From positions 1 to 64,000 of the forward strand of contig JAKSDI010000289.1 in the NCBI GenBank assembly GCA_022360175.1: a DNA stretch of 64,000 nt. Reading direction: 5' to 3'. Shown here piece by piece: positions 5,000-63,049 of the stretch (its first letter is position 1; each line of letters begins with the position of its first letter). Under the pieces are notes generated by a model, which was not told the DNA's origin, searched no databases, and saw only the letters and a program-made list of their open reading frames with translations. The position numbers and the translations under genes are program-made. This DNA comes from Chitinophagales bacterium. GTDB taxonomy: Bacteria > Bacteroidota > Bacteroidia > Chitinophagales > Saprospiraceae.

Positions 5000-5088
5000 A
5001 CTGAAACTTGTCACTCTATCTCCACAATTTCTTTTACAGTATAACTTTTTGTTACCTCATCTTCTAAAATGCCTTATATTTGCAGCCT

Positions 5089-19688: not shown

Positions 19689-19756
19689 TAAAACACTAAA
19701 AATCAGAACATTAAATTATCTATTTTAGTACCTTAACATCTATTCCTCCCCTGGCT

Positions 19757-19838
19757 TTCAGCCGACCCCTCCGAAGGGGTACAGGTGCTGTGCTCTCTCG
19801 GGGGAGCTGCCCGCTGGGCTGAGGGGGATGTTCTATAA
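19757..19838. repeat. Family A intergenic repeat, copy 1 (inverted relative to the other copies)
   Basis: Reverse complement reads cttatagaacatccccctcagcccagcgggcagctcccccgagagagcacagcacctgtacccct, matching the copies at 23761, 30725, 34577 and 43792. Contains the hairpin acccct-tcgg-aggggt. Confidence 0.75.
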
Positions 19839-20135
19839 GGTTAAACTAATTCCTTGTTTTAAAATTACACTTCGACACACCTGCAACAAATTTAATCTTG
19901 TACTATGGATGTTATTTTTAACAGCTGGATATGGGCAATTCGGTTGTAAAAAATGGCTTGCCCAAAATTAAATTTGACTACATGTGCATCCAAAAGCAAA
20001 ACTCAAACATGTTCCAAGTTTAAAGGAAGATGTAAGATACTAATTGGTGCATTGTAAATGTGTGCTAAGTCCGCTAATACTTATAAACCTGAAGGTGCAG
20101 AACTATCGATGTGTACTATAAGTCCCGACAGGCAA

Positions 20136-23593: not shown

Positions 23594-23760
23594 AAAAGTG
23601 TTTTACTTAAAGGTAAGTTTGAACACCTACTTATCAACTCTGCTATTGTAAATTATGGTAAAACGAGTGTAAAAGCATGATCTCATCCACCTAAGCATCC
23701 TGGATATGATAGTGGGTTTATTTTTATAAAGTAAAAATAGTGACTTGGAACTGATTCAAA

Positions 23761-23826
23761 CTTATAGAAAGTTCCCCTCAGCCTTGCAGGCAATTCCCCA
23801 GAGGAGCCTATCCCTCTCAGACAGAT
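23761..23826. repeat. Family A repeat, copy 2 (most diverged)
   Basis: cttatagaaagttcccctcagccttgcaggcaattccccagaggagcc.... Confidence 0.6.
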
Positions 23827-23959
23827 CGTGTTGATTGGAGGGATAAATCAGCTAAAAGCCGAGGGAGGAATAGATATTAAGGTGCTAAAAAGACAGTTTG
23901 AATCTCTTCCTGGATTAATTTCCAAATCACTATCTTTTATACTTTTCTTTAGGTGCTTT

Positions 23960-30630: not shown

Positions 30631-30724
30631 TGAAAATATTTTTTTAGGCTCCAGCTGTTCTTTTCAATAACAAACATATTATTTTTGATTTGTTCACTTA
30701 GTTAAGATCATCAATTGATTAAAA

Positions 30725-30803
30725 CGCATAGAAGGTCCCCCTCAGCCCTGCGGGCAGCTCCTCCCAAGGGAGCACAGCACTTATACCCCTCCCAGACAGG
30801 TCT
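30725..30803. repeat. Family A repeat, copy 3
   Basis: catagaaggtccccctcagccctgcgggcagctcctcccaagggagcacagcacttatacccctcccagacaggtctt. Confidence 0.8.
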
Positions 30804-34539: not shown

Positions 34540-34576
34540 TCTTTTTTCATTTTGTTATGCCTGAAATCAGTTTAAA

Positions 34577-34640
34577 CTTATAGAATATCCTCCTCAGCCC
34601 TGCGGTCAGCTCCCCCAGAGGGAGCACAGCACTTTAACAA
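34577..34640. repeat. Family A repeat, copy 4
   Basis: cttatagaatatcctcctcagccctgcggtcagctcccccagagggagcacagcactttaaca. Confidence 0.8.
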
Positions 34641-43712: not shown

Positions 43713-43791
43713 TCCATTATTTTAAACCTTCAGCAAGATAAGTTTTAATTTTTTCTTTTGTTTTCTGAACAAGAACTGGAAGTGATTTAAG

Positions 43792-43865
43792 CTTATAGAA
43801 TGTCCCCCAGCCCTGCGGACAGCTCTCCCGAGGGGAGCACAGCATCTGTACCCCTTCCAAGACTT
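43792..43865. repeat. Family A repeat, copy 5
   Basis: cttatagaatgtcccccagccctgcggacagctctcccgaggggagcacagcatctgtaccccttccaagactt. Confidence 0.8.
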
Positions 43866-47584: not shown

Positions 47585-48682
47585 TTAATAAGCAATTTCG
47601 ATTGCTGTATTTGGAATCGGCAATATAAACATTGTAGAGTCTTTCAAATTTAATGATTCAAGTTGTTGTTTTACATTCTTAATAAACCTCTTGACGTTTG
47701 TATTTGGTACAGTGGCAGGTTTTCTTGTATTCTTTCTGTATTGCCTAAAAAAATTTTCCCAATGATTTCCTATAATGAACTTTGGTTTAAGTCTTTGTAT
47801 AACTTTTTCTGGGTAATTATCAACTTGATTAAAATTAGCTACACAAAGGAATAGTACATCAATTTTTTTTTCTGTTAAAATACTATCGTTGGGGATTCCT
47901 ATATCATCATCACATGCAGCTCCTGCGTGAGAAAAAATTCTGAGTTTTATTTTTTCATTATCACCCAATATGTCAATAATGAAATTGTAGTTTTCACCTT
48001 CTGGAAATCGACCAACTTTTGTAGGAAAAAAAGATAAATCTTTTGTTAGTTTTTTTGAAGAGAGCAATTTTATCCCACAAAAATGAGGGGCATGTTCTGT
48101 AGGTATAGGTAGTATCCTTATTTGATTATTTCTTGTGTATATCCATTGATATGCTTTAGGTTGGATATTTTCTGAATTCAATTCATTGACGGGCCTTATT
48201 AAGGTAATGTCTTTATCTATTTCACTATTTTTTAAAATATGATTTGTAGTTGGGCCTCCAATTATTTCGGTACTATCAATATTACAATTACGTAAATAAA
48301 TGGAAGGAACATCCGCTAAATGATCGTAATGAGAATGAGCAATCAATATTGCTTTAATAAGTCCACTAACATCTTTTGAAGAACCAAAGTTTTTCTCAAA
48401 AAAATCATCAATTAAAATTGTATCTGTTTTTAATTTTTTAAATAAAATTAAAGGCAATGGATTTATATTGGAAAAGTAAGGATCAATAAGTATTGCTGAA
48501 GAATCTTGTTGTATTAAAAAACCTCCAGATCCTGTATATGTAATTATTGAAGAGCCCGCTCCATAATGTGCTAAAGGGATTGATACGGGTTTATCTGCAA
48601 TGTGTGGTTTTATTTTACTTGCTTTTCTTGTTCCTGAACAGGAAGTACAAATAATTACTATTAACAGCATCAGTTTTCTCAT
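47585..48682 (-). CDS. MBL-fold metallo-hydrolase, lipoprotein
   Basis: Lipobox (LIVIICTSC). HxHxDH region (LIAHSHYDHLADV). Confidence 0.75.
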   Translation of the reverse strand: MRKLMLLIVIICTSCSGTRKASKIKPHIADKPVSIPLAHYGAGSSIITYTGSGGFLIQQDSSAILIDPYFSNINPLPLILFKKLKTDTILIDDFFEKNFGSSKDVSGLIKAILIAHSHYDHLADVPSIYLRNCNIDSTEIIGGPTTNHILKNSEIDKDITLIRPVNELNSENIQPKAYQWIYTRNNQIRILPIPTEHAPHFCGIKLLSSKKLTKDLSFFPTKVGRFPEGENYNFIIDILGDNEKIKLRIFSHAGAACDDDIGIPNDSILTEKKIDVLFLCVANFNQVDNYPEKVIQRLKPKFIIGNHWENFFRQYRKNTRKPATVPNTNVKRFIKNVKQQLESLNLKDSTMFILPIPNTAIEIAY

Positions 48683-48712
48683 GAAGTGCTTATTATTAAA
48701 AAATAATCACTT

Positions 48713-48813
48713 TTCAATATAGTCCAATCTCAACAAGATTGCAAGGTTGTGCCTTTTAATGCAATGCCGTACCTTTTCGGCAACTGAAGATCGCCGCAAC
48801 AGTTGCTACACAA
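48713..48813 (-). promoter_or_regulatory. Family B shared upstream element, copy 1: candidate promoter with the palindromic operator CAATCT-N5-AGATTG, plus a conserved hairpin
   Basis: Begins 31 bp upstream of the MBL ATG at 48682. In the coding direction it reads cTTGC-aatcttgttgagattg-gacTATATTGaaaag. Shares a 90-bp core with the copies at 54563, 55781 and 62875. Confidence 0.6.
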
Positions 48814-48970
48814 GTGCTAAGACAAATTAAATCACATATTATCTTGAGTCAATTTTCATCCTATGTGGCGTTAGAAATCCTCGTCGAAGCACCACTTCGC
48901 CTACGTTTTCTGCCTTGCCTAGAATGAAAACCCTTCTCAATATAATGGTAACACAATTTTGTCTTAGCAC
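48814..48970. mobile_element. MITE-like 157-bp insertion with perfect 13-bp terminal inverted repeats, interrupting family B copy 1
   Basis: gtgctaagacaaa at 48814-48826 and tttgtcttagcac at 48958-48970. The other three family B copies run straight from core to tail with no such insert. Confidence 0.55.
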
Positions 48971-49079
48971 TTAAAGAATAGAATGTAGATTGCCTTTTGG
49001 AAAAGGTTTGATAACTAAGAAGAGTCTTATTTTTAATTACTTAACCTAACACACTTTTTGTAACACCCTCAATTTATCC

Positions 49080-49451
49080 TTAATCATCTTCGGTTCTATG
49101 ATTCCAAACCTGAATTGCTTTTAATGTTTCTTCATCAGCATTTATATTTCTTAGTTCCTCAAGCTTAACGGAAAAAATTATCTCTTTGTACCCTATCTTT
49201 ACATAATAACTCCCTCCTTTGAAATTTGACTCCGATGACTCATTGTTGATCACTTTCACTTTTGTCCATAAATGCTTTCCATTTTTGAATTTCACCTGGT
49301 ATTCGGCTTCAAATGGATAGTGAATATTATCTTCCATAAATATTGCCCATCCTAAGTTAACTTCTTCTTCGTCATAGCAGTCAACTATGATTTTATCCTC
49401 TATAATTTCCTGAATTTCGCTCTTAGTCAATTTCATAATTAATTTTTTCAT
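49080..49451 (-). CDS. Small acidic hypothetical protein (immunity-protein-like size and composition)
   Basis: 123-aa ORF. No known motif. Confidence 0.4.
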   Translation of the reverse strand: MKKLIMKLTKSEIQEIIEDKIIVDCYDEEEVNLGWAIFMEDNIHYPFEAEYQVKFKNGKHLWTKVKVINNESSESNFKGGSYYVKIGYKEIIFSVKLEELRNINADEETLKAIQVWNHRTEDD

Positions 49452-49601
49452 TTAATATTCACCGAGTTTAAATCTCGCTTGTTCTGCAATTTCTTCATCA
49501 CTCGATAATTTCAATTCTTCTAAAGCCCAACCTCCTTTATTAAACTCCCTTTTCTACTAATACAATCGCTTCTTCCCTACTCATTAGCATCTTTCTCTGG
49601 A

Positions 49602-50441
49602 TTAAAACACATATTTATATTTCTTCACTGCGTCTAATTGGCCGTTTAAAAACTGCTGCACATAATCGATCAATCCATTTTCATGATAATAGTATTTTTT
49701 CATTAATACATCTCCACTTTTCAGTTCTAAAATCCCTCCTTCCCCGATTGTTGTAGCTTGCCTATAGTGTTTAGTAATTACTTTACTCTTTGTTTTTGTT
49801 TTTCCTACATACTCTATTTTATAAATATTCCTTTCTCTTTTATTTTTCTTCGCCTGATATGTTGAGATGTGCCTTCCATATTTATCATAATATAGTTTTG
49901 TCCATGATTTCTTTTTGTTCTTCCTTTTTACCAACTGATCATTGGAATTGTATTCAAATTTAATTTTTTCACTCTTCTGTTTTTTATAAAAAACGATCCT
50001 TTTTATTAATAAATCTTTCTCATTGTAAGTATTTCTCACTTCAATTATTTTCTCCTCATCCTTATAGTGAACTTCTGCAATTCTATTCCCTTCTTCATAA
50101 TTAAATTTAGCTACCCCAACTAGCTTATTATCTGTCCCGCTATAGGTATTCATTTCAACTAAAATGGTATCGTGTAGGTAAACCCTCTCGTACCTGGCCT
50201 TCAATTTCAAGGAGTCATATATCAATGTATTGACAACATATCCCTTTGAATTGAATTCTGCTTTAACATTCATTATTGAATCAGGTAAAACCTTATCGTC
50301 AACAATTTCAAAGTTGTAAAACTCAATAGCCTTAACCTTATTTTTTCTTAGTAGCTCTATTTGATAATTTTTTTGTCCAAAGACCAAATTAGACCCTATA
50401 AATATTATTAGTACAGTCAGTTTTAGTTGTTTGTTTTTCAT
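49602..50441 (-). CDS. Exported Lys-rich hypothetical protein
   Basis: Signal peptide. Repetitive beta-rich K/Y/E composition with no catalytic motif. Confidence 0.45.
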   Translation of the reverse strand: MKNKQLKLTVLIIFIGSNLVFGQKNYQIELLRKNKVKAIEFYNFEIVDDKVLPDSIMNVKAEFNSKGYVVNTLIYDSLKLKARYERVYLHDTILVEMNTYSGTDNKLVGVAKFNYEEGNRIAEVHYKDEEKIIEVRNTYNEKDLLIKRIVFYKKQKSEKIKFEYNSNDQLVKRKNKKKSWTKLYYDKYGRHISTYQAKKNKRERNIYKIEYVGKTKTKSKVITKHYRQATTIGEGGILELKSGDVLMKKYYYHENGLIDYVQQFLNGQLDAVKKYKYVF

Positions 50442-50505
50442 AGCCTAAATTTGTAAAATCAATGTTATATATTTATGTCCTACAACCACTTGCAGCCTGA
50501 TTTAT

Positions 50506-52170
50506 TCAATCCTCCCATGAATTTATCAGATTTTCATCTTTGTCATATTGTTCTGTTAATTTCGCCATCGAATGGCCACATTGATTCATCAGGTCTCTTT
50601 TTTCCGTTGGATAATACTTTTTCTTGTATCCCCCACCCTTTTCATATTCAGTCCAGACACCAATTTTGTATCCGTTCCAATATTTTCCCTCGGCAGATTT
50701 CTCTTTCGTTCTATAATTGTATTGAACAAAATGCCCGTTTAGGAATCCATTATCAACATAGCTACTTTTCCCATTTTTATCGACTGTGAATTCTCTCGAA
50801 TTAACATATCTTGATTCTTTTCTTATCGAACCATCCTCATTGAAGAAAATACTCATTCCATTCAATCTCCCATTTTCATAATTTTCAATGCTTCTTATCG
50901 TGTTGTCTTCATTAAAAATGATTTTCTGTCCATGCATCAGATTGTTTAAGTAAGATGTAAATTCTATCCCGCCTGAGCTGTAAATATGTGTTTTTGAAAT
51001 TCTTTCACCATTTGAGTCATAGGCTTCTTCACTATTTAATTTACCATCATAGAAGTATTTCCAGATGCCAATTCTTTTTCCGTCAATATACCGTCCGCTC
51101 ACTTTGATACGGCCCTCCTCATCATAAATTAGAAATTGCTGTTCTTCCTCAGGTATTTCCGGGTAAGTTTTGGTGTCTACTAATACACCTTTCTTATCAA
51201 AAAATTTCCATTCACCGATCCTCGCCCCTCTAAAATAGTTGCCCTCTGCCAAAGGTGAATACTTACTCGAATCTCTGGCGAGTTTATTAAAGTAATATCC
51301 ATGCTGGTATCCAATCCCATCGTATTTCTTACTATTGTAATCTAACACCTCCCAAGAATACTCCTTCAATTTAATCCCTGATGAATCGAAATATGTTAAA
51401 GTCACTATTCTTTCTCTATCATTCTTGTATTCATATTTTTTTTGATATCGATCATATTCAATTATTTCAGGCAGGTTAAATTGGTATACCCTTTTTTCAA
51501 TGATAATATTCTGCTCATTGTCTTCATAATAAATATTGTATTTCCCATGAAGCATGCCATTTTTATAGGATATTTCACTTCTCTTAATTTCTTTTTCAAA
51601 TTCATCCTGCCTGCTGTAATGAATCCAATTACCATCAGGTATGCCCGATTTAAAATTCCCTCTTGCTATTAATTTGCTACCTCCTTTAATTTCTTTACTG
51701 CCTGAATATTTACTATTCCTGATAGCTTCATATTCTTCTAAAACCTCAATGTAAATTTTGCCTAGAGGGTTTATAGACCTCTCGCACTTACTACTATTGC
51801 CTTTATTGATTTTGGTAGACAAAAAGTCACAAACAGTTGCTCCATAATGTAAACTATCTTTAGTGGTACTAAAAATCAACCATTCAGATTTCGGATATAG
51901 TTTTTGCCCTCCAGCTGTTGTACCTCCGCCTGTATGTATATATATTGTATCGTTTGGCCTTCCTATGTATCTCTTTTTTACAACTGCAATACTTTCGTAA
52001 CTAATACCTCTTATGTATGTCTGCAATATTTCGCATGTGAAGATATGATGATTCTTTGGGTCATGATTGAGCAATTCCGTAATTGAAAAATATTCACCAT
52101 GACAAGACCCAAACAAATTTATTGAGTTTGTCAAAGCAATTATTATCAATATGTATTCACTGATCTTCAT
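50506..52170 (-). CDS. MORN-repeat (YwqK-like repeat) lipoprotein
   Basis: Lipobox LFGSC. At least 8 degenerate repeats of the GxWxxYxxNGxLxxEGxYxNGxKxGxW type. Confidence 0.65.
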   Translation of the reverse strand: MKISEYILIIIALTNSINLFGSCHGEYFSITELLNHDPKNHHIFTCEILQTYIRGISYESIAVVKKRYIGRPNDTIYIHTGGGTTAGGQKLYPKSEWLIFSTTKDSLHYGATVCDFLSTKINKGNSSKCERSINPLGKIYIEVLEEYEAIRNSKYSGSKEIKGGSKLIARGNFKSGIPDGNWIHYSRQDEFEKEIKRSEISYKNGMLHGKYNIYYEDNEQNIIIEKRVYQFNLPEIIEYDRYQKKYEYKNDRERIVTLTYFDSSGIKLKEYSWEVLDYNSKKYDGIGYQHGYYFNKLARDSSKYSPLAEGNYFRGARIGEWKFFDKKGVLVDTKTYPEIPEEEQQFLIYDEEGRIKVSGRYIDGKRIGIWKYFYDGKLNSEEAYDSNGERISKTHIYSSGGIEFTSYLNNLMHGQKIIFNEDNTIRSIENYENGRLNGMSIFFNEDGSIRKESRYVNSREFTVDKNGKSSYVDNGFLNGHFVQYNYRTKEKSAEGKYWNGYKIGVWTEYEKGGGYKKKYYPTEKRDLMNQCGHSMAKLTEQYDKDENLINSWED

Positions 52171-52280
52171 ATACTTTTTTATGCTTGTTCATTCTTTTCC
52201 CTGATTGATTATACCCCTAAATGTTTGGATTGTAACTTTGGTTTGTACAGTTGATCTAAGCAGCTATAATCGCATACATA

Positions 52281-53378
52281 TTATTCTATAAGTTTATGTT
52301 TTTTCAACCATTCTTCCATCGTTTCATAATAATTATCACAAGCTTGCCATTTTAAAGCTGATAAATCTTCATGCCATCCACAGGTGACACACTTTTGCAA
52401 ATTATGATTGCAGTTTTCAAATACCTTTACCGTTAATTCGGACATAGGATTCCTATCAATCGTTTCTTCGTACAACTTTTTTGTTTTACGCCAATCAACC
52501 TGCGAATCATTTGCTCCAAACAATGCTAAAACTGGACAATTTATATTTAGTAATATTTTGTCAAAATCATCCAGGTAAACCCACAGGCCGCTTTGGGTAT
52601 CAAAATACCCTTTGCTTGTATACAGTCTCCGATTTTCTAGATATTTTTTTCTATCCTTTCGGTTAGGCTTGGAATGATTGGTGTATCCAAACAATTTCCG
52701 ACTAGTACTATCCTGCCTTAATGGTTGAATTGCATTTAGATATTTCTTGTAATTACCATGCAAGCTAAAAATTTTGTGCCCCAGCATCCAGGCCTCATAC
52801 AACTGATCCGCTTCTTCCTCCTTTTTTCCTGCAATTATTAAATTCGACTTCAGAAGGTAACCAAAGTTTTCCTTGTCATCTGTTCCACTGACGGAAATCC
52901 AAAAGTCAATTGGATATTGTTCATTGATTAATGGAACAATCCAACCTGCTCGGCTTATTCCCCAAAACCCGATCTTCTCATATCCGGAAATTTTCAACCT
53001 TTTGATTTCCTGGATTGCTGCTATTGCCTCATTGGCTGAGTTTTCCACAGGCTGTTGAGCATTAAATTCACCATCGCTATTACCACATCCCATTTTATCC
53101 CAAAAACATACGGTTAGCCCAGATGCAACTAATTTATCTCTTAGGGTAAAATACCAGTTGCCTTCAATAAAATCAGTCCTGCCATATCCAGGCATGATTA
53201 TTATAATTGCTTTAGATTCTTGATTTTTTGGTTTTTCAATCAATCCCCTTAATGTCTTATCCTCAAACTGAAATTCGAACGGTTCCGATGATGTTTGACT
53301 GAACACTTTTGGAGCTATCAATAGCAAAGTGACCATTAGAATTGTGGTAAAGGCTATTAATTTTCTCATCCTTAACAT
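52281..53378 (-). CDS. Exported alpha/beta-hydrolase
   Basis: Signal peptide. GFWGISRAGW nucleophile elbow. Lies 20 bp downstream of the MBL gene, suggesting an operon. Confidence 0.7.
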   Translation of the reverse strand: MLRMRKLIAFTTILMVTLLLIAPKVFSQTSSEPFEFQFEDKTLRGLIEKPKNQESKAIIIIMPGYGRTDFIEGNWYFTLRDKLVASGLTVCFWDKMGCGNSDGEFNAQQPVENSANEAIAAIQEIKRLKISGYEKIGFWGISRAGWIVPLINEQYPIDFWISVSGTDDKENFGYLLKSNLIIAGKKEEEADQLYEAWMLGHKIFSLHGNYKKYLNAIQPLRQDSTSRKLFGYTNHSKPNRKDRKKYLENRRLYTSKGYFDTQSGLWVYLDDFDKILLNINCPVLALFGANDSQVDWRKTKKLYEETIDRNPMSELTVKVFENCNHNLQKCVTCGWHEDLSALKWQACDNYYETMEEWLKKHKLIE

Positions 53379-53398
53379 ATAGTTCTTTTGTTTGCTAT

Positions 53399-54550
53399 TT
53401 ATTGTCTTTTAGCGATTTTATTTTCTGTTCCATCAAAATAAATTAATTCTTTATTCCCTTGTTTAAAAGTAATATGCCGATGAGGGGCGTGTCCTCTTAT
53501 ATGAAATTTTGTTTCCGAAAGTGGAATTAACTCGAACATAAATCCTCCGCTAAGTACAAATAGTTTCTTTCCAAGCAATACAATCTTATCCATTGTGTTG
53601 TCCGCATAAAGATAAGATCCTTCATAGGTTTTGATTTTATCCATTGGTACCGGAATGCCCACCACTAAATCTGAAGATATTGACCTTCCAATCGTCTGTT
53701 TTAACTGATTAATAGCAAAGTTTTTATTGTCATTAAATGCTTTGCCCAATTCTTTAATTTGATTATCATCAGCTATCTCATCAATGCTTTTGATTTGATT
53801 ATGTAGTTCTTTTATTCTGTTAATCCAGTTGTTTGAATTTTCTCTATAGTTTTTAAGTTCTTCGCGATTTGAGGATAGATCCCCATGACCAGCTATAAAA
53901 AGGGTATTATCATTTCCAAGGCTTAAAGCTTTATTAAGTATTTCAATATGAGCACTACCTCCCCCACCAAAATAAAAATGGGGTAAAGCATTGGTCATAT
54001 AAACATCCCCCATAAAAACCACATTATTTTTGGAGAAATAGATAATTACATCATCAATAGAATGGGACGGAACATGGAAAAATTCTATTGTTTCATTCCC
54101 CATTTTGATAGTGTATCTATCTTTAAAAGTAACATTTGTCTTCTCACTCGTAAATTTGGAATTTTCTTGCGAAACTATTATTGCTCCAATATCTGCAAAA
54201 AAAGAATTTGCCCCGCTATGGTCACTGTGGCTATGAGTATTGATTACGTATTTGATAGGCTTTTCAGAAAGTTCTTTTATTTTTTCCAATAAAGCTTGAT
54301 GGTTATTTACCCCTGCCATTGGGTCAACAAGTACAATTTCTTCATCACCAATAAAAACGCCAATATTTGTACGATAATTTTTTGATCTCAGAATATAGAA
54401 GTTATCGTTAATCTTTTGTTCAATAAAATTAGAAGTTTGTTTTGGTTCCGTTTTATCGGTACTTAATATGTTGATGTTTTTCTTTGTTTTTGCATCTGAG
54501 CAAGAACTGACAAAAAGCAAAGCCAAGGTTAATAATGTTATAAATTTCAT
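53399..54550 (-). CDS. MBL-fold metallo-hydrolase, lipoprotein
   Basis: HxHxDH motif (NTHSHSDHSG). Lipobox LLFVSSCS. The supplied ORF begins at a TTG 21 bp upstream, so I called the start at the ATG (MKFITLL). Confidence 0.75.
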   Translation of the reverse strand: MKFITLLTLALLFVSSCSDAKTKKNINILSTDKTEPKQTSNFIEQKINDNFYILRSKNYRTNIGVFIGDEEIVLVDPMAGVNNHQALLEKIKELSEKPIKYVINTHSHSDHSGANSFFADIGAIIVSQENSKFTSEKTNVTFKDRYTIKMGNETIEFFHVPSHSIDDVIIYFSKNNVVFMGDVYMTNALPHFYFGGGGSAHIEILNKALSLGNDNTLFIAGHGDLSSNREELKNYRENSNNWINRIKELHNQIKSIDEIADDNQIKELGKAFNDNKNFAINQLKQTIGRSISSDLVVGIPVPMDKIKTYEGSYLYADNTMDKIVLLGKKLFVLSGGFMFELIPLSETKFHIRGHAPHRHITFKQGNKELIYFDGTENKIAKRQ

Positions 54551-54562
54551 GAACTTAAGATT

Positions 54563-54735
54563 TTCAAACAATATACTCCCGTCACAATAAGATTACCAAA
54601 CTGTACATTTTGCAACAATGCCATACCTTCTCGGCGACTGAAGATCGCCGCGACAGTTGCTGCGTTAAAAATAAAACGTAAATTCTGTTTTATGAAAGAG
54701 TTTGATGCCTAAGAAGAGGTTGCTTAAATATATAG
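54563..54735 (-). promoter_or_regulatory. Family B upstream element, copy 2 (degenerate palindrome; hairpin and tail motif intact)
   Basis: Begins 13 bp upstream of the MBL ATG. In the coding direction it reads TTTG-gtaatcttattgtgacgggag-TATATTGtttg. Contains cggcga-ctgaaga-tcgccg. Confidence 0.6.
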
Positions 54736-54784
54736 TATCGCAGTCAGATTAGATGGCTTGTAGAGAGGCTACGACGAACAGTTT

Positions 54785-55747
54785 TCAATTTTTTTGAACC
54801 CAGTCAACCAACCTTTTATTGAAAAGTGTACTTTGCTCATATTGAGGGGTATGCCCACTTCTTTCAAATAAGGAAATTGTTAGGTGGGTTGACTCTTTAC
54901 ATTCCAGGTTCCAAAGGGTGGGAGGAGCGATGTAATCACTTTTCCCGGCAGCTACAAAAACAGGAATATCCAATTTTTCTTCCGGCGAACATAGATCGTA
55001 CGTTGGGATTACCTGGCCAAACAGGTGGTATAAAAAATCTAAATTATAGTTTACTCTCTTAAAAAATTGCGTGGCGTCTAAATGCTCATCGTGCCATCTT
55101 TTAGGACCAGAGGCTACCAAGCTTTTAATAAAAGCTTCACGAGGATTTAAAGTATCACTTTTTTCTTTTTCTAATTGCTTTTGCTTTTCATTATATAGTA
55201 ACTTCCTTTTTTCGGGCGCATTTTCCCAATATACTTTTACAGAGTCTGCATATGTGGTCGTCCCCCAGGTTCTAGGCGTTGCCATCATCACAACATGAGA
55301 AACGTATTCTGGATATTTTTTAGCATACTTGTGAGCTACTGCTCCTAACACAGAGTGCCCTCCAATTATAAACTTTTCAAGCCCTAAAACAGCTCTCAAA
55401 GTATCTATGTCTTTAAATAGATTATCAATATCATATTTTGAAAGATCAATTGGATTGTACTCCGTTGCATTAAACCTCATCTCTATAGAATACAACCGGA
55501 AATGATCCGGAAAGTCTTTTGAAAAGTATTCAGGATCTGACCCAATTAATAGAAAAGGAATCCCCTTTCCTTTAATGGAATAATTCAAGGTAGAACCATC
55601 AATAATAACACTTCCCGATTTGTCACTATCATCTGATAGTAGTTCTTTATGATCACTGTTGTTATTCTCGCAGGCTAAAATTGTGATCAGACAAATAGCA
55701 ACAATTTGACAAGTGATTTTCATATGATTGCTTATGCTACATAACAT
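54785..55747 (-). CDS. Alpha/beta-hydrolase, lipoprotein
   Basis: GGHSVLGAV nucleophile elbow. Lipobox-like N-terminus. Confidence 0.75.
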   Translation of the reverse strand: MLCSISNHMKITCQIVAICLITILACENNNSDHKELLSDDSDKSGSVIIDGSTLNYSIKGKGIPFLLIGSDPEYFSKDFPDHFRLYSIEMRFNATEYNPIDLSKYDIDNLFKDIDTLRAVLGLEKFIIGGHSVLGAVAHKYAKKYPEYVSHVVMMATPRTWGTTTYADSVKVYWENAPEKRKLLYNEKQKQLEKEKSDTLNPREAFIKSLVASGPKRWHDEHLDATQFFKRVNYNLDFLYHLFGQVIPTYDLCSPEEKLDIPVFVAAGKSDYIAPPTLWNLECKESTHLTISLFERSGHTPQYEQSTLFNKRLVDWVQKN

Positions 55748-55780
55748 TTGTATATCTTAATTATGTATACAATTATTACC

Positions 55781-55930
55781 CTTCAATATACTCCAATCTC
55801 AACAAGATTGCAAAACTGTTCATTTTACTACAATGCCATGCCTTCTCGGCGACTGAAGGCCGCCGCGACAGTGCTACCTTAGAAATACCTTTTGAGAAAA
55901 GACTTAATAATTAATGCTCTAGCAGAAAGA
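55781..55930 (-). promoter_or_regulatory. Family B upstream element, copy 3 (perfect palindrome)
   Basis: Begins 34 bp upstream of the ATG at 55747. In the coding direction it reads TTTTG-caatcttgttgagattggag-TATATTGaag, with the 6-bp arms CAATCT/AGATTG lying between -33 TTTG and -7 TAtaTTG. Confidence 0.65.
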
Positions 55931-56072
55931 GCACGACAAGCTTTTGCTGAGCATGGGTGTTTAATGCATTATTATAGCTCATTCTTTTTTTATTCATTAC
56001 CATGAAAAGTTTAGGACGGGATCCTTCTGGACCCCATCGCTTAGAGATACTAGGTTAGTGCCTCTAAGGTTC

Positions 56073-57170
56073 CTAAAATTCGTTTTGTAGGATGACTTCC
56101 ATAATTTGATTACGCTGCTCTCCTTTATCTTGCTCATTGCTCAATAGAATTATCAAGCCATTAGATTCTGGAACAAGTATCAAAAAACTGGTAAATCCAT
56201 CAATATCTCCGCCATGATGGTACACTAGCTGTTCTTCGATCTTAAGTGTGAACCAGCCAGCACCTGGGGTATTGACGCCTTCCTGGTCGTAAGCTGCGGC
56301 AAATACTACTTGCTTTTCTTCTTCTGTAAAGTAATTTCCAAGTAGCGCGTCTCCCCATTTTTCAAGATCTTCTATCGTACTTTCTAATTCTCCTGCACTA
56401 TAAGCAATTTGCATCTGGTAAGGGGCAACTTCCATCCCTTGATCGTATCCTTTTGCTCGCTCAGTACCAATGATTTCGTCTGGCCCCTTAGCCGTTTTTT
56501 TAAGGCCTAAAGGCTGGTATACTTTCTCCTGCAGGTATTCCTGATAAGACATATCAGTCAATTCTTCAATTAGTATTCCAAGGAGCAAGTAGTTAGAGTT
56601 TGAATAGGAGAAAAACTCTCCGGGAGTAAATGCCAAGCCGTCTTCTTCAACCGCTTCTACGATAATTTCAAAGATTTCTTCTGTCTCAATGTAGTAGTTG
56701 TTTTCCTCGACATATGCATCTACCGCACCCACATAATCAGGAATACCTGAATGATGGGTCATAAGATGTCTAATCGTAATTTGATCACCATATGGAAATT
56801 CCTCATCAAAATCACTAAGCGGTTGATCAAAACTTTCAATTAATCCATCTCTCTTTAGGTTGACCACTGCGGCAGCCGTAAATGATTTAGTCACCGATCC
56901 TATTCTGTAAATGAGTGAAGGCTTATTTTCTATCTTATTAGCTTTATCAGCCATTCCAAATCCCTTTCTTAGTATGTCTGTGCTGCCATTCCGTATTAGT
57001 ACACTTCCTGTAAAGCCAATATCTTCCAGGTAATCTTCTGCCGAAACGTAGTCGGAAACGGGATCTGGTAAGGTCATGCTGTCATCATCCGTGCATGCAC
57101 TCATAACTGCCACCAATAATATCATAATTGATAATCTGAATTTTTCCATAAGAGTTGTCATTATTTTCAA
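56073..57170 (-). CDS. Serine hydrolase (beta-lactamase family), lipoprotein
   Basis: SVTKSFTAAAV (SxxK). Lipobox VMSACTDD. Confidence 0.8.
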   Translation of the reverse strand: MKIMTTLMEKFRLSIMILLVAVMSACTDDDSMTLPDPVSDYVSAEDYLEDIGFTGSVLIRNGSTDILRKGFGMADKANKIENKPSLIYRIGSVTKSFTAAAVVNLKRDGLIESFDQPLSDFDEEFPYGDQITIRHLMTHHSGIPDYVGAVDAYVEENNYYIETEEIFEIIVEAVEEDGLAFTPGEFFSYSNSNYLLLGILIEELTDMSYQEYLQEKVYQPLGLKKTAKGPDEIIGTERAKGYDQGMEVAPYQMQIAYSAGELESTIEDLEKWGDALLGNYFTEEEKQVVFAAAYDQEGVNTPGAGWFTLKIEEQLVYHHGGDIDGFTSFLILVPESNGLIILLSNEQDKGEQRNQIMEVILQNEF

Positions 57171-57441
57171 GTTTTATAAATGAAATGATGACTCAAAATT
57201 CAGACTATTCAATGCTCCAATCATCCTGAATTATAATATGGAACGCAAGAATGTGATTCGGAACCTTTTCATAGTTTTATATTCTTTTAATGAGCTATTC
57301 ACCGTTTAGTACGGAGATAATCTTATGCTGACATTTGTAAAAGTTGTTATGAATAGATGATATAGCACCGTAGTCAAACCAAACGGCTTGTGGAAAGATT
57401 ACAACGATTGGCAAGACTACGACGAAGAGAACTTCAATTCA

Positions 57442-58578
57442 TTATTGGCCTATCACGTCCATTGCGATCACCATTCCAATTAATCCGCTTGTATTGTGGT
57501 CACCATCAACTTCAATAAGACGTATTGAATTACTCCTATTTTTCTCTTCCATTTGCAAATAGAATCTATTGAGAATATCGAAAGGAACATCTTCATCTAA
57601 ACGGCTGTGAATAAATGTCATAGAGATGCCTGACTTAAAAGATTTCACACTATGTTTTTTCAAATTCCTGGCTACTCTCCTGAAAAGCTTACTTTTTGGG
57701 CTCCTAAATTCCGATTGCAGAAACGCTTCAATTCGAGTTGGAATTTTTTCATTTAGCTCCTGAAGTCCGTCTCCGTTTATAAACTCACTTATAATTTGGT
57801 CATGGGGAGGTAGAAAAAAAGTGGATAAGCTTTTCTTCCAATAGTAATGATTATGAACTCCTAAAAGGTAGGGTATATAGCCTGCATGTAAAAATGTATC
57901 CTGCTGGATCACATACTGTAAATTTTCCACCAGATCAGTAGGCCCTCCTATCGATATTACATGTTGGATAGATACATTAAAATAATGGGCTTGCTTATGC
58001 TTTTCAGCAAAGGCCAGAGCGAGATGTCCGCCTTGGGAGAAGCCAATGATGTTTAACTCCCTTCTGCACTTAATACCTTGCTTTTTCAAAAAATCTAAGC
58101 CACTTTTTATGAAATCCTCCAAATGAATGAGCGAATTTTCCTTATCAAAATACGCTGGCATTTCTCCCATACTGCTTCCATAACCCAGGTAATCAGGTAA
58201 AAAAGTGATATACCCATTCAAGGAAGGGAGCGCTTCAATGTGTAAAGGAGCATTCCATGTAGAACTCACGTTTTGGTCAAACTGGGTTCCATGGCAAAAA
58301 ACGGTGATGCCAGGCTTTTCCTGATTGGTGGGTATTAATATACTGCCACTTAAAATCACTTTCCTGCCATTCATATAACTTTCATGGGTGATTCTATAAG
58401 CTCGAACTCCATTCCTGATATACTTAGCAAAGGGTTTATAAGCATCGTTTGATTGAATGATTGGCAGTATTTGTTCTCGAGAGAATTCGTAAAGATTCTG
58501 ATGGGTAGATGCTTCAGAAGTTTGTCCAAACGAAAACTGGACAATGAACATAAGACATAACAATACGGATAACTTCAT
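57442..58578 (-). CDS. Exported alpha/beta-hydrolase (lipase/esterase-like)
   Basis: GFSQGGHLAL (GxSxG). The signal peptide starts at the internal Met (MKLSVLLCLMFIVQFSFGQ). The ORF is open to 58638. Confidence 0.7.
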   Translation of the reverse strand: MKLSVLLCLMFIVQFSFGQTSEASTHQNLYEFSREQILPIIQSNDAYKPFAKYIRNGVRAYRITHESYMNGRKVILSGSILIPTNQEKPGITVFCHGTQFDQNVSSTWNAPLHIEALPSLNGYITFLPDYLGYGSSMGEMPAYFDKENSLIHLEDFIKSGLDFLKKQGIKCRRELNIIGFSQGGHLALAFAEKHKQAHYFNVSIQHVISIGGPTDLVENLQYVIQQDTFLHAGYIPYLLGVHNHYYWKKSLSTFFLPPHDQIISEFINGDGLQELNEKIPTRIEAFLQSEFRSPKSKLFRRVARNLKKHSVKSFKSGISMTFIHSRLDEDVPFDILNRFYLQMEEKNRSNSIRLIEVDGDHNTSGLIGMVIAMDVIGQ

Positions 58579-58647
58579 GGATAGTTCTTTTTGTTTTTGA
58601 ATAGAGGCAAACAAAAACATAAGAAGCCATGAAATCAACTCAATTAA

Positions 58648-59640
58648 TTATTTGAGACTCTTTTTGAGGTATTCCGATGGTGAAAAATTCGTGTGCTTCT
58701 TGAAAGCTCTCTGGAAAGTGGCCTTCGAACCGAAACCGCACTCCAGCCCTAGGGAGGAAATGGTTTTGGTTTCTAACTCGGATGTGCTCATTTTCAGGAG
58801 GCATTCTTTAATCCTGTAGCTATTGACCAGATCATTAAATTTTACACCTAATTTCTTGTTTAAGATAAAAGACAATTCATGAGTGCTGATTCCAAGCCTG
58901 GATGCCAGGTCCTCTCTTTTTAACTGGGGGTCCAAATACAGTTTCTCATTCTCAAGCAAGCTAATGAGTGATTTTTCCAAATCTTTATTTGCTCGATAAG
59001 CATAAGTAGAATTTCCAAACACTCTCGGTGATTGCAGGAAACTGAGCGTCAGATAATACACCAATACTCCCGCAATCCCATAAGCGCCTTTCCAAAGGAA
59101 ATTTCCAAGCTGATTGTTGTACAAATCAAAAAACCGGGCACCAAGTGCAGCCAACCAGCCAGCCAAAAAGATATAGGCAATGTACAAAAGTCTTTTCTCC
59201 GCTTTGCCTGAAGCACTATCTCGATAGAGGAAATAGATCAATAATACATTGTAGAAAATATTATAGGCAGCCATGAAAAACGACATAAAAAGTGCCCATC
59301 CCTGGGAAACTATAAATCCCGTTATTTCAATTCCCACAAGTAGCATCTTCAAAAAAACAAATGGAACTAAATGATAACCTATTGAGCCTTTCCATGAATC
59401 TCGCTTCAGTGATCGATAAAAGGCAAACAAAAGGGGCCCAAGAGCAAATAGATTTCCATGGTTAAGCAGGTGGATAATACTGTTCATCCATTCTAAATGA
59501 CTGATGCTATCAATGGCAATGATAAAACAGATGAGCGCTAAAATGCGATACCGAAAAGAGCCTTTAGTGTATAGAAATGTTGCAAGTAGAATTCCTTGTA
59601 GGCCAACTACTATGAAGATGACATACCCTACAGTTTGCAT
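58648..59640 (-). CDS. AraC-type HTH regulator fused to an N-terminal polytopic (about 6-7 TM) membrane domain
   Basis: Hydrophobic N-terminal 200 aa. C-terminal AraC HTH (LASRLGISTHELSFILNKK...SEY). Confidence 0.8.
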   Translation of the reverse strand: MQTVGYVIFIVVGLQGILLATFLYTKGSFRYRILALICFIIAIDSISHLEWMNSIIHLLNHGNLFALGPLLFAFYRSLKRDSWKGSIGYHLVPFVFLKMLLVGIEITGFIVSQGWALFMSFFMAAYNIFYNVLLIYFLYRDSASGKAEKRLLYIAYIFLAGWLAALGARFFDLYNNQLGNFLWKGAYGIAGVLVYYLTLSFLQSPRVFGNSTYAYRANKDLEKSLISLLENEKLYLDPQLKREDLASRLGISTHELSFILNKKLGVKFNDLVNSYRIKECLLKMSTSELETKTISSLGLECGFGSKATFQRAFKKHTNFSPSEYLKKSLK

Positions 59641-59765
59641 TTATTGACTGATTATTTTTTGCCTCAACATATCATTGTAGCTAAGCTCAAGCCTTGCCAG
59701 CTACCCACCAGCATGGCCTTTGAGCTTTTTATTGGTGGCAGTTTCATTTTTTACTACCTATTTTT

Positions 59766-60260
59766 CTAATCACGATAGCTATTTTGTCCTTTAGGTGTTA
59801 ATCCATTTGGTATTATAAGCAATATAGTGTCTATCAACCACCCAATTCCAAACAAACCAAAAGTAAAGATATAAAGTACCCCCATTCCTGTATAACCAAG
59901 ATAAAATCTATGGATACCTAAAAAACCAAAGAAAATACAAAGAATTAATGCAACTAGCTGCACCTTGCCACCTCTTCGTTTTTTAGATTTTTTGGCTATC
60001 TTATCCTGAGCTCTCTTCTGCTCTTTATTAAATTTTCTTTTCGCTATTTTCAGGAGAACTCTTTCTTTGAAATTTAACTTCCGGCCTAATTTTTCCTCCA
60101 AATTTACTCTGGAAAAATTATTCTCAACCTGGTTGTAGGTCAATTCTGTTTTTTGATCATTGTTTTTCACCCTTACAACGGCTTCACTTTTTGTAGGCAT
60201 TAAGCCTATGATCATTACAGATAAAAGAATTGGTAAGATTTGTCTAAATTTTTGACTCAT
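59766..60260 (-). CDS. TM2-domain membrane protein with a basic N-terminal region
   Basis: C-terminal TM2 signature [31 protein letters not shown]. Confidence 0.65.
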
Positions 60261-60772
60261 AATTTTTTATGATTTAATTACCATTGCTTTGTCTCAATAT
60301 TCTTTATTGAATGAATTCATTTGATTTATCCATTATCATATGTTTATAACCGATTATTAGAACTTACTCTTCTCCCACTGACAACTATGCTTGAATTTAA
60401 TCTTTAGTCCAACAAAATTACAAAGCAAGACCATTCATCATAATACTAATATTTTTATTGCTAGCTGAAGATTACTGCAATAATTTTTATGCTTAAAGTT
60501 AGAACCTATACTACTACCTTAGATGGAACAACGGAGGTGAAAGTATTTTAGAGTTTTCAGTTATTAAACACAACCTTATAAAATTCCTTCTACTCATTGT
60601 AAGTTCTGATAAGCATGTAGCATCGTAGCCGGATCAGACAATTCGTAGAGAAGCCATAATGAACGAAGATTATCACGAAGAGAAGTTATTTGCGCCTGAG
60701 TCCAACCTGAGAATACATCTTTCCTTTTTTATCGAAATATAAATCTAACTTGTGTTACGTGATAATAGAAGT

Positions 60773-61978
60773 TTATTCAGGAAGTTGCTCCCATTTTTTT
60801 ATAGCATCTAAAAAATTTTTGTCTCCGGCTTCATAAACTATTTTATTCTCTTTAGTGATGCTATATGCAATAGGTTGGTTTTTAATTTTTCCTGCTTTCC
60901 AAAATTCAAAACATTTTTTCAATAACTCAATATCTCTATCTTTCGTTAAATCCATATCTAATTTATAAAGATTTTTGATTAGTTTTTTCGCTTCTCTATT
61001 CATCCCCTCATCAATATGAATTAGAGGCGAAAGCCTGATAAATCTACTTGTGATATTGTCTCCTAAATTTTTTTTCAGGAAAATCAGAGTTACATAATTA
61101 GCCCAATCAGGTGGTTGATATAAAATAGTTTTTGCCTGATTAAATACCGTTTTCACAAAGAAGCTTATTTGAGCTCCAAGTTTCCAAAATTTTAGTTTTT
61201 TCCTCTTTTCTGAATCTGCCATTTCTTTTAATAAACGATACTTTTCCTTTTCTTCCGTCGACATGACATTATTAGATGTCCCCAAAGAAACGATTGTAAT
61301 ATCTTTAAAATCTACTCCCAGTTTAAAAGCCTCAATTAATCCTGCTAATACGGGGTTATTAAATCCCCCTAATGCCCCATCCCATAATTCATAATGAAAG
61401 TCCCTATTTAGTGGCTTAAATTTCGCTGGGAAATCAAAATATTGAATCGGTGCATTAGAAGATCCATGAATGGCTTGTGTCAGCTTCACAGAATCAAAAA
61501 AATCCTTTTCTTCACCATATGATTTGAAAAATTTTGCCCTATTATTTAAAGCATCATATGTACTAACCACTAGTTTCAAAGAACTTTTCCCTATAAAATC
61601 AGGAAGTTCAGTCATTTTTCGATTATGAACTTCTGGAAAAAATTTTTTAAAAGCTTCTAATTTTTTTGCAGAGCTATATTTGGGTCCAAAAGGGAGGAGC
61701 AATCTAATGTAATCAACTGGAAAATATCTATTTAAGAATTTATTTTTACTAAATATTTGTTCTTTTAATTCTCTATTTGCAAATAATTGAATTGCTTTTT
61801 CTAGCTTCCAATTTTCAGCTAAGGCTGCTAAAACAATACTGCCTCCAGAATTTGCAATGACTAGATCAAATTTCTTTAAGATTTCATGCCCACTTAAATT
61901 ACCATATTTTTCTTTTAATGTTAGAAGTTGTAAAATGGACCAGCTTCCACCTCCATCTAATGATAATATATGATACAT
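60773..61978 (-). CDS. Patatin-like phospholipase
   Basis: LSLDGGGSWS (GGGx box), ANSGGS (GxSxG-like) and WDGALGG (catalytic Asp, DGA/G). Confidence 0.7.
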   Translation of the reverse strand: MYHILSLDGGGSWSILQLLTLKEKYGNLSGHEILKKFDLVIANSGGSIVLAALAENWKLEKAIQLFANRELKEQIFSKNKFLNRYFPVDYIRLLLPFGPKYSSAKKLEAFKKFFPEVHNRKMTELPDFIGKSSLKLVVSTYDALNNRAKFFKSYGEEKDFFDSVKLTQAIHGSSNAPIQYFDFPAKFKPLNRDFHYELWDGALGGFNNPVLAGLIEAFKLGVDFKDITIVSLGTSNNVMSTEEKEKYRLLKEMADSEKRKKLKFWKLGAQISFFVKTVFNQAKTILYQPPDWANYVTLIFLKKNLGDNITSRFIRLSPLIHIDEGMNREAKKLIKNLYKLDMDLTKDRDIELLKKCFEFWKAGKIKNQPIAYSITKENKIVYEAGDKNFLDAIKKWEQLPE

Positions 61979-62203
61979 AGTACTGGGTTTTAGATTTTAA
62001 AAACTTTTAAACTTTCCCATAGAAATTATCGATAATACTAACATGCAACTAAACTTAGTCGCCTTAGGGCTGCTAATGTTTCAAGGGTAGGAATCGTATT
62101 TCATTTCCTCAACATTTTTTCTAGTTAAAATAACATTATCAATGTAATTACTTTTTTTAAGAAAAATCAAAATCCCACTTAATATTCTTTGCCAACAGTT
62201 TAA

Positions 62204-62222
62204 GCAAAAAGCCCCCTTTTGC
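62204..62222 (-). terminator. Hairpin terminator candidate after the 152-aa membrane-protein gene
   Basis: gcaaaa-agccccc-ttttgc starting 18 bp downstream of the stop, in an AT-rich context. Confidence 0.35.
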
Positions 62223-62239
62223 TTGTTGTTATCTGCTGA

Positions 62240-62698
62240 TTAAATTTCTATCAAATTAACTAGAACTAGAATGTAAAGTATTAAGCCGAATATAGCTACC
62301 AAAATATGAGGCATTGCGACATGCGGCCATGTCAAAATTTTAAGATATTTTTTTAATTTATTTTCTTTCCAACTACTTAACCAACTTTTATTCGTTTGTA
62401 GCGGTATCAAAGAATCTATTTCGCCTCTAAAATACCTTTCAATATCAACCACTCTGGAATAGTAAGCCTGTTGAAAAGTTTTCCATTGAATCTCTATTAG
62501 CCAAAAAACAACCGAACTGAGACTTGCTACTAATAAAATAATAGAAGCGTCAACTGCAAAAGCAGCTCCTAGGGCACCAAGACTAAAACTTATGCTCCAG
62601 GCTTTTATTGTTAGTGCTCTTTTATCAAAATCTTCAATAATCGTTTGTATATGAAGATATTCTGCCTTCAGAAGTTGAATCAACTCATTCTTCTTCAT
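62240..62698 (-). CDS. Small 3-TM membrane protein (2-TM hairpin, helical segment, C-terminal TM)
   Basis: 152 aa with TM hairpin residues about 31-73 and a C-terminal TM about 130-150. AT-rich codon usage like the adjacent patatin gene. Confidence 0.5.
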   Translation of the reverse strand: MKKNELIQLLKAEYLHIQTIIEDFDKRALTIKAWSISFSLGALGAAFAVDASIILLVASLSSVVFWLIEIQWKTFQQAYYSRVVDIERYFRGEIDSLIPLQTNKSWLSSWKENKLKKYLKILTWPHVAMPHILVAIFGLILYILVLVNLIEI

Positions 62699-62874
62699 AA
62701 TTTTTTTATACTTAACATTTGTATATCCATGCTGTGTATATATCTATTATGCTTCAATACATTGAAATTTAATTTTCAACAGCTTGTGGTAATACTTTTA
62801 TTGATTGAGTTTATCTTATCTATCTACTATTAATTAATTACAAGTACTTATATTAAAATAATCAAACTGACTCA

Positions 62875-63015
62875 CTACAATATACTCCAATTTCAACAAG
62901 ATTGCAAGACAATGCCTTACACTACAATGCCAAGCCTTCCATCGGCGACTACTAAATTTAAAGTTAGAACGAATATTGCCTTCTGAGAAAAAGCTTGATA
63001 ATTAATAGAGTAAAA
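62875..63015 (-). promoter_or_regulatory. Family B upstream element, copy 4 (one palindrome mismatch, internal deletion of the hairpin)
   Basis: tatactccaatttcaacaagattgcaag ... caatgccaagccttccatcggcgact|actaaa ... ccttctgagaaaaagcttgataattaa. Lies 180 bp upstream of the ORF at 62698. Confidence 0.55.
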
Positions 63016-63049
63016 ATGAAGAGTGTCGCATAAGTATATAGCCCCGTAA

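Follow-up and report, generated by a model that had tools for sequence, protein, structure and literature searches.

In Bacteroides, insertion sequences (ISs) that carry outward promoters activate resistance genes, for example when an IS lies upstream of cfiA. Putative mobile promoters (PMPs) are homologous upstream regions that precede non-homologous genes in one genome and have no attached transposase. They are recognized by at least 50 nt of at least 80% identity between non-homologous flanking coding sequences and were defined with a 150-nt window; the class is an operational one, delimited by bioinformatics, and no mechanism is specified for it (Matus-Garcia, Nijveen & van Passel 2012; PMC3488235). 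Their proposed role is to rewire the transcription of accessory genes rapidly. Here, these systems are compared with an intergenic element that occurs in four copies (c1 to c4) in a 64,000-nt stretch of contig JAKSDI010000289.1, referred to below as the window. The element is, on balance, probably a lineage-restricted, modular "portable promoter" module, which recombination would have spread before unrelated accessory genes in the hypervariable same-strand array of an Aquimarina-like flavobacterium.

The element has the arrangement of the PMPs. Pairs of its copies are 83.5% identical over 91 nt (c1 and c3), 86.5% over 89 nt (c2 and c3), 93% over 60 nt (c3 and c5, the latter from a sister strain) and 89% over 55 nt (c4 and c5). 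An all-against-all BLASTP comparison of 14 neighboring proteins gave no match between different proteins at E < 0.01. Because the flanking proteins, downstream as well as upstream, are non-homologous, the repeat is not a by-product of gene duplication, and paralogy is ruled out as its source. The element departs from the described PMPs in that c4 lies beyond the 150-nt defining window, and it adds to them a modular build (0/A/B/C), the replacement of an allele between strains and a copied native leader. It belongs to this known, loosely defined kind, and its intermediate states in three strains are unusually informative. With the IS-borne promoters it shares the presence of repeated DNA, here a putative supplier of the promoter, 5' of hydrolase and metallo-beta-lactamase-fold (MBL-fold) genes; it differs from them in being 150-240 nt of non-coding DNA that lacks a transposase gene, terminal inverted repeats (TIRs) of the IS type and a target-site duplication.

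The following observations establish the repeat family. A profile built from the four minus-strand copies re-found all of them in the window (nhmmer, E 1e-33 to 7e-54). Repeat detection returned two families, one of 65 nt with four members and one of 107 nt with three members; the identity in family D2 is 80-85% across 65 nt. The 28-nt core GCAATCTTGTTGAGATTGGAGTATATTG has three matches with at most 3 mismatches, compared with none in 100 shuffles. The repeated upstream element described in the original prediction is therefore real, and each of c1 to c4 indeed lies 5' of a minus-strand gene. Its length had been put at about 150 bp, but the unit reaches further in the 5' direction, to about 240 nt at c3. 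The split of c1 into two pieces is also borne out: the copy is interrupted by a 160-nt insert resembling a miniature inverted-repeat transposable element (MITE), which has TIRs of 15-19 nt and folds into a single long hairpin (-60.9 kcal/mol, z = -7.1). The insert lies outside the repeat family, is the sole copy of its kind within the window, and is missing at the orthologous c1 site of one of the two sister strains introduced below. The coordinates of all copies are collected in Table 1, where the modules are those defined in the text that follows.

Table 1. Copies of the element and features associated with them (window positions)
Feature	Positions	Strand	Description
c1, 3' part	48700-48811	-	End of module A and module B; nhmmer 48703-48823, E 1e-33; pattern match with 1 mismatch
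c1, landmarks			GC hairpin GCGGCGA-N7-TTGCCG; TTG; palindrome 48725-48741; TATATTG 48715-48721
Insert splitting c1	48812-48972	.	160-nt MITE-like long hairpin; TIRs AAGTGCTAAGACAAA
c1, 5' part	48973-49054	-	Module A with AT-rich hairpin CCTTTTC-CAAAAGG; nhmmer 48969-49054, E 8.6e-13, model positions 1-84
c2	54558-54745	-	Modules A and B; nhmmer E 7e-54; palindrome degenerate; TATATTG 54569-54575
Module C	55724-55761	-	Native 5' leader of the alpha/beta-hydrolase gene (GATATACAAATGTTATGTA...); aligned with L026, L002 and L025
c3, full discrete unit	55762-56000	-	5' extension, modules A and B and about 22 nt; core 55771-55940, nhmmer E 7e-47; flanks 99.6-100% identical to L001
c3, landmarks			GC hairpin 55847-55865; palindrome 55794-55810; TATATTG 55784-55790
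c6, candidate decayed, AT-drifted fifth window copy	60389-60532	-	nhmmer E = 1.2 (weak); repeat D6, 74% over 31 nt
Partial second copy	62699-62775	-	Directly 5' of the 3-TM gene; module B 3' end (GTATTGAAG), linker, piece of module C
c4	62866-63030	-	Module A with internal 21-nt deletion, module B; nhmmer E 9e-39
c4, landmarks			Palindrome 62888-62904 (1 mismatch); TATATTG 62878-62884; 5' arm of GC hairpin deleted

The genes behind the copies are of several kinds. Copy c1 ends 32 nt 5' of the ATG of an MBL-fold lipoprotein gene (47585-48682). Copy c2 ends 18 nt 5' of the ATG (54550) of another MBL-fold lipoprotein gene, which is followed by an S15/alpha-beta-hydrolase gene; the 5' extension of c2 overlaps the final codons of the alpha/beta-hydrolase gene upstream of it. 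The distance from c3 to the ATG of its alpha/beta-hydrolase gene is 36-60 nt, and c4 lies 179 nt 5' of a gene for a protein with three transmembrane segments (the 3-TM protein; 62240-62698), with a patatin gene next. Pfam agrees with these labels as originally given. The description of the genes as exported hydrolases holds for three units, whose products have lipoprotein or signal-peptide N-termini, but not for the 3-TM/patatin unit or for the unit behind c5. The candidate copy c6 is found 130 nt 5' of a TM2-domain gene within a window-specific segment, and the partial copy before the 3-TM gene corresponds to repeat D5 (73% over 60 nt, with a 15-nt exact match).

Two sister strains were available for comparison: L001, a contig of a Logan assembly that is 97.8% identical to the window over 49532-60278, and L028, part of a 2.7-Mb ENA contig that is 94-96% identical to the window. 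The known placement of the copies is drawn from the 64-kb window together with about 36 kb of sister-strain DNA. Strain L001 has orthologues of c2 and c3 (c2o and c3o) and a further copy, c5, before a different gene. The end of c5 is 210 nt from the ATG of that gene, and module A is present in c5 only as a fragment in which the 5' arm of the GC hairpin is deleted. At all five independent loci (c1 to c4 and c5), the element lies 5' of genes that have the same orientation and are non-homologous to each other.

An alignment of seven copies (c1 to c4, c5, c2o and c3o) makes it possible to describe the anatomy of the element in some detail. The 5' part, module A, contains two hairpins, of which CCTTTTC-CAAAAGG is AT-rich and CGGCGA-N7-TCGCCG is GC-rich. 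The four copies in which this module is present show 63-79% identity and numerous indels there; c4 has lost the middle of the module, and c5 most of it. Upstream of module A there is a looser stretch, the 5' extension (AATGAATAAAA ... CTATATA), which may overlap the final codons of the upstream gene. The 3' part, module B, is about 62 nt long and consists of GGCATGGCATTG, 21 nt, and AATCTTGTTGAGATTGGAGTATATTG. It is 71-89% identical and has no indels among the five independent copies. Conservation is highest (0.87-0.89) just before the heptamer TATATTG, which is invariant in all seven copies, and falls to 0.45-0.58 directly after it. Module C, which is the alpha/beta-hydrolase gene's own (native) leader, has homologous counterparts in front of the orthologues without the element.

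The GC-rich hairpin of module A has a GC content of about 68% in a region of about 33% GC, and it is kept in c1, c2, c3 and the orthologues. This retention raises the question of whether the element is a structured RNA on the gene strand, either a cis-regulatory element of a 5' or 3' untranslated region (UTR) or a small RNA, with this hairpin as its core. Two substitutions in the stem arms give G-U pairs on the minus strand, but two such compatible changes are not statistically meaningful, and RNAalifold (-8.5 kcal/mol, 18 pairs) finds no compensatory change. No Rfam match was obtained, either at the gathering threshold over the whole window or at E up to 1 around the copies, and the folding z-scores are between -1.4 and +0.6 on both strands. 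Copies c4 and c5 have lost the 5' arm of this hairpin, which is not followed by a U-tract. An RNA function of the element is thus extremely unlikely. Module A appears to be a loose, indel-prone accessory part, which could serve as an insulator, as a weak terminator for the upstream gene or as an upstream binding region.

Module B most likely supplies a promoter, as judged from its motif and geometry. The closest described promoter class is SM5 of the transcription start site map of Flavobacterium psychrophilum, in which the box TAnnTTGY lies at -12 to -5 and one promoter has been confirmed by mutagenesis; the box equals the sigma-A box apart from a spacing between TA and TTG that is shorter by one base, and the main text of the report does not name the sigma factor (PMC9723704). 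In the element, TTG is found upstream of TATATTG with a 20-nt spacer in c1, c3, c4 and c5, that is, at four of the five independent loci, and the resulting pattern TTG-N20-TAnnTTG fits the flavobacterial TAnnTTGY class. Transcription would start about 6 nt past the G of TATATTG, near positions 48709, 54563, 55778 and 62872 of the minus strand, and the predicted leaders would be about 27 nt (c1), 13 nt (c2), 55 nt (c3) and 174 nt (c4) long. The predicted leaders of c1 to c3 (13-55 nt) are compatible with flavobacterial 5'UTRs, which have a median length of 24 nt and a mean of 65 nt (PMC9723704). The element thus resembles SM5 and the Bacteroidota sigma-A promoters (-33 TTG about 19-21 nt before the -7 box TAnnTTTG) in its invariant TAnnTTG, in the TTG some 20 nt upstream at most of the loci, in its location right in front of genes and in plausible leaders; it differs from them in that TAnnTTTG is not present, a pyrimidine follows the box only in c2 and c4, and the start sites here are predicted ones.

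Other sigma-factor readings of the element were tried. A sigma-70-style scan calls the module B site in c1 to c4, and such 9-of-12 matches are no commoner than in shuffles. The sigma-54 reading, suggested by GGCAC-N4-TTGCA seen by eye in c1 and c4, was rejected, the spacing being one base short and the GG not conserved in c2, c3 and c5. A reading as an extracytoplasmic function (ECF)-type promoter (TGAAC...) was rejected as well, the motif not being conserved between copies.

In front of the alpha/beta-hydrolase gene, the element stands where the orthologues have their native promoter region. Because the element replaces that region, the gene needs a promoter either from the element or by read-through. 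This replacement, the fixed spacing, the invariant box, the sharp 3' boundary and the uniform orientation are all consistent with a promoter, although none of them is proof.

The same features bear on the possibility that the element is a selectively neutral repeat, either the leftover of segmental duplications or a decaying non-autonomous element, with no promoter or regulatory role. Its restriction to one lineage would fit such an origin, and so would the mosaic, truncated or interrupted state of the copies: c1 is split by the MITE-like insert, c4 and c5 have lost parts of module A, c6 is decayed, and L028 has no module B. Other intergenic repeat families are present in the genome, and the c3 allele of L001 has seven unique substitutions in module B. 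A neutral repeat, however, does not readily account for an orientation that is consistent with the downstream gene at five of five loci, for a module B that is free of indels while module A of the same copies is rich in them, for an invariant TATATTG directly behind which conservation drops, or for a location at the native promoter position of the alpha/beta-hydrolase gene. Terminal inverted repeats and target-site duplications, moreover, are not found. A neutral origin is accordingly considered unlikely.

Among short repeats, MITEs and repetitive extragenic palindromic (REP)-like sequences are similar to the element in being short, non-coding, hairpin-containing, intergenic and confined to one lineage. 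The element differs from them in the lack of TIRs and target-site duplications, in its uniform orientation and in a conservation that rises towards the gene-proximal end. The identification of the element itself as a MITE was rejected: its ends, TTAGTTATCAA... and ...GGAGTATATTG, are not inverted repeats, and no copy has a target-site duplication. A GC-rich REP-like intergenic family (...CCCCTCAGCCCTGCGGGCAGCTCC...) is dispersed over the same-strand array of the window in both orientations (23755-23818, 30719-30782, 34571-34634 and 43784-43847), with inverted arms at 19723-19862 and 23848-23890. A further pair of repeats, 82 nt long and in direct orientation (4554-4635 and 4915-4996; 91% identical, 361 nt apart), lies in a long intergenic stretch upstream of a lepA-like gene (5080-6879).

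The comparison of strains suggests how the putative promoter module has been spread. At c3, the window and L001 agree in 99.5-99.7% of positions in the coding flanks and in 100% of the 100 nt directly adjoining the unit on either side. Between these flanks, the 239-nt c3 unit is a sharply bounded block of about 85% identity with an 11-nt indel. Both c3 alleles hold states off the family majority, and all seven differences in module B are unique to L001. Ordinary divergence cannot explain this pattern, and the likeliest account is that the whole unit was replaced by conversion from a family member outside the available data. Diversity-generating, adenine-specific mutation was ruled out as the cause of the allele differences, the substitutions being of all types.

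A different kind of copying is seen before the 3-TM gene, where a piece of module C has been duplicated together with the last bases of module B (62699-62775). Here the upstream region of one gene has been copied, over the boundary of the unit, to an unrelated gene. This favors recombination of an imprecise kind over precise transposition. The copies would thus spread, become homogenized or be replaced by ordinary recombination, that is, by segmental copying and gene conversion. Since the c3 replacement is sharply bounded between identical flanks and its 3' edge coincides with the start of the native leader, it is also conceivable that the unit of about 240 nt (5' extension, module A and module B) is a discrete, self-contained regulatory cassette exchanged whole among loci and strains by a dedicated mechanism and not by chance recombination, and would then represent a new kind of mobile promoter element that equips newly acquired accessory genes in Flavobacteriia; this is regarded as quite unlikely.

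The identity between L001 and the window forms a mosaic along the locus: the TM2 gene is 100% identical, the gene of a 398-aa hydrolase and the following intergenic region (57442-58638 and 57171-57441) are about 94.5% identical, and the next genes are about 99.5% identical. This mosaic suggests frequent recombination patches.

The c1 orthologue of strain L028 has neither the MITE-like insert nor module B, and ...GTCGCCGAAAAGCCAT runs straight into AATAAGCACTTCATG. Three blocks of the window are not present in this strain: c3 with its hydrolase gene; c2 with the MBL gene, the S15 gene and most of a 554-aa gene; and c4 with the 3-TM and patatin genes. A guanylate-cyclase gene and a Macro-domain gene are found instead. 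Of the 554-aa gene, L028 has no more than about 88 codons at the 3' end (8147-8475, corresponding to 50442-50770 of the window), where they adjoin the guanylate-cyclase gene, and this remnant points to replacement by illegitimate recombination inside the gene.

Between L028 and the window, homology breaks off precisely where c2 begins on its 5' side. Without c2 and c3 themselves, L028 still has a remnant of the sequence found in front of them. Together with the sharply bounded replacement of the c3 unit and with the long same-strand array, whose gene content differs among the three strains, these junctions suggest that the element might be a site of recombination at the borders of gene cassettes, which an integron-like or other site-specific system would exchange. 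Integron cassette arrays are indeed similar to the locus in consisting of small accessory genes on the same strand that vary between strains, with the element standing between some of them. They differ from it in that no integrase was found, no attC core is seen, no imperfect palindrome extends over the whole element and only some genes are preceded by a copy. A Pfam scan gave no integrase, recombinase or transposase among 40 open reading frames of the window, about 18 small ones being outside the scan, and inspection by eye revealed no attC core sites (RYYYAAC / GTTRRRY). Only the 5' edge of c2 and the edges of the c3 unit coincide with junctions; the other strain-specific junctions are inside genes or off the copies (50770, inside the 554-aa gene; 49532; 63417; 60278). 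The duplication before the 3-TM gene, in addition, crosses the boundary of the unit into the leader of another gene. A site-specific function of the element is therefore very unlikely.

Several observations weigh against the description of the element as a portable promoter. In all seven copies, TATATTG is one T short of the canonical Bacteroidota -7 box, TAnnTTTG, and the base that follows it, although T in c2 and c4, is A and not a pyrimidine in c1, c3 and c5. At -33, c2 has the TTG in a shifted position (TTTGG), and its orthologue in L001 no longer has it (TTTAG). The ends of c4 and c5 are 179 and 210 nt away from the start codons. The similarity of the module B copies could stem in part from recent copying or gene conversion rather than from selection. 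The first MBL gene of L028 is intact (95% amino-acid identity) and is preceded by module A only, so that module B is separable from module A and dispensable for the retention of this gene. Finally, the whole description is based on five to six loci in three strains.

The original prediction had gone further and placed in all copies a perfect palindrome, CAATCT-N5-AGATTG, between a TTTG at -33 and TATATTG as the Bacteroidota -7 element. TATATTG is invariant, but its match to the -7 consensus is short by one T; c3 has TTTG and c2 has it one base out of position, whereas c1 and c4 have TTG. As for the palindrome, c1, c3 and c5 have it in perfect form. In c4 and in c3o, one position is mismatched with no compensating change, and in c2 (TAATCT...TGACGG) and c2o the dyad is lost, about two of the six arm positions being able to pair.

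Bound at this palindrome, the regulator, either a repressor acting as a dimer or a protein of the AraC type such as the membrane-anchored AraC encoded at 58648-59640, would co-regulate a small regulon of secreted hydrolases. The position of the dyad between TTG and TATATTG in c1, c3 and c5, the lipoprotein or signal-peptide hydrolases in three of the downstream units and the several AraC-family genes nearby are in keeping with such control, and c3 has as many as three perfect 6-bp inverted repeats (at least two are present in 6.4% of shuffles). A single 6-bp inverted repeat with a loop of 3-10 nt, however, occurs in 23% of the shuffles of the element, and the arms of the dyad are no better conserved than the adjacent bases. 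Stand-alone palindrome sites with up to two mismatches are not in excess in the window (5 found, 5.5 expected), and the other fetched loci have none except that of c5; none lies 5' of any AraC gene. Strain L028 keeps the membrane-anchored AraC beside its hydrolase partner, as well as the intact first MBL gene, and has no copy of the module with the palindrome and -7 box in the 21 kb fetched from it. The genes behind c4 and c5, furthermore, are not exported hydrolases. An operator-controlled promoter of this kind is therefore improbable: of the proposed shared promoter, the promoter-like character of the 3' module (its invariant TATATTG, TTG spacing, lack of indels and fit to SM5) is retained, while operator control, the regulon defined by it and the AraC protein as cognate regulator are unsupported.

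The distribution of the element is narrow. A stricter pattern had no match among the GTDB representatives (one genome per species). A degenerate pattern that covers all copies gave four chance-level matches in the same collection, in unrelated phyla only, and 17 matches in the JGI metagenomes, none of which fits the profile beyond the pattern. BLASTN of the element against plasmid and phage collections returned nothing. In five other genomes or assemblies, other Aquimarina among them, orthologues of the alpha/beta-hydrolase (74-85% amino-acid identity) have upstream regions that are unrelated to the element and in which only the native leader is kept. Because of these unrelated upstream regions, the element appears to be a recent, lineage-restricted addition, as far as the searched collections reach, and not a conserved regulatory site. 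Among named homologues, those nearest to the alpha/beta-hydrolase come from Aquimarina species (69-81% identity). There is a taxonomic mismatch in the region: an NCBI metagenome-assembled genome labeled Chitinophagales bacterium encodes a protein identical to the 3-TM protein, while the best named homologues of a neighboring gene product are from Aquimarina (Flavobacteriaceae).

The surroundings of the element have several features of their own. Over about 52 kb of the window (12000-64000), nearly all genes are on the minus strand, and they include many AraC-family regulators, hydrolases and dehydrogenases. This part of the window is a hypervariable accessory array, the content of which differs between the three close strains. 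The window-specific segment 60279-63417 contains a TonB_C-like fragment of 90 aa, c4, the 3-TM and patatin genes and the decayed copy; in L001 and L028, a DUF1905 gene is found in its place. The 3-TM protein has a weak match to the PADLOC candidate PDC-M50A (E 6e-5) and has homologues in distant phyla (45-58% identity), and the patatin protein matches defense phospholipase effectors (E 1e-27). The segment may be a defense cassette.

Behind the class-C-type beta-lactamase-fold gene upstream of c3, there is a terminator-like hairpin (56015-56045; L028 6725-6765) followed by a run of T. Its arms differ between the two strains, GGGGTCC/GGATCCC as compared to CGGAATCC/GGATTCTG, and the stem is kept. 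Near the other end of the window, a 920-aa LRR-Roc-COR protein (1553-4315) adjoins a 425-aa protein with the effector-associated domain EAD11 (246-1523). Roc-COR proteins are unusual in bacteria.

Taken as a whole, the locus does not reveal a new type of system, and the claims of an operator, a regulon and a cognate AraC are not supported. What it offers is a set of intermediate states held by three strains: the replacement of an allele, the loss of module B and the copying of a native leader. If module B is active, the element would be a clear natural case of promoter propagation in a marine flavobacterium, in which one module stands before MBL-fold genes, alpha/beta hydrolases and the 3-TM/patatin pair that resembles a defense cassette. 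An active module B would also allow the TAnnTTG(Y) class of promoters, which is poorly understood, to be put to the test, and, being compact, it would be a candidate for a portable promoter in genetic tools for the Flavobacteriaceae.

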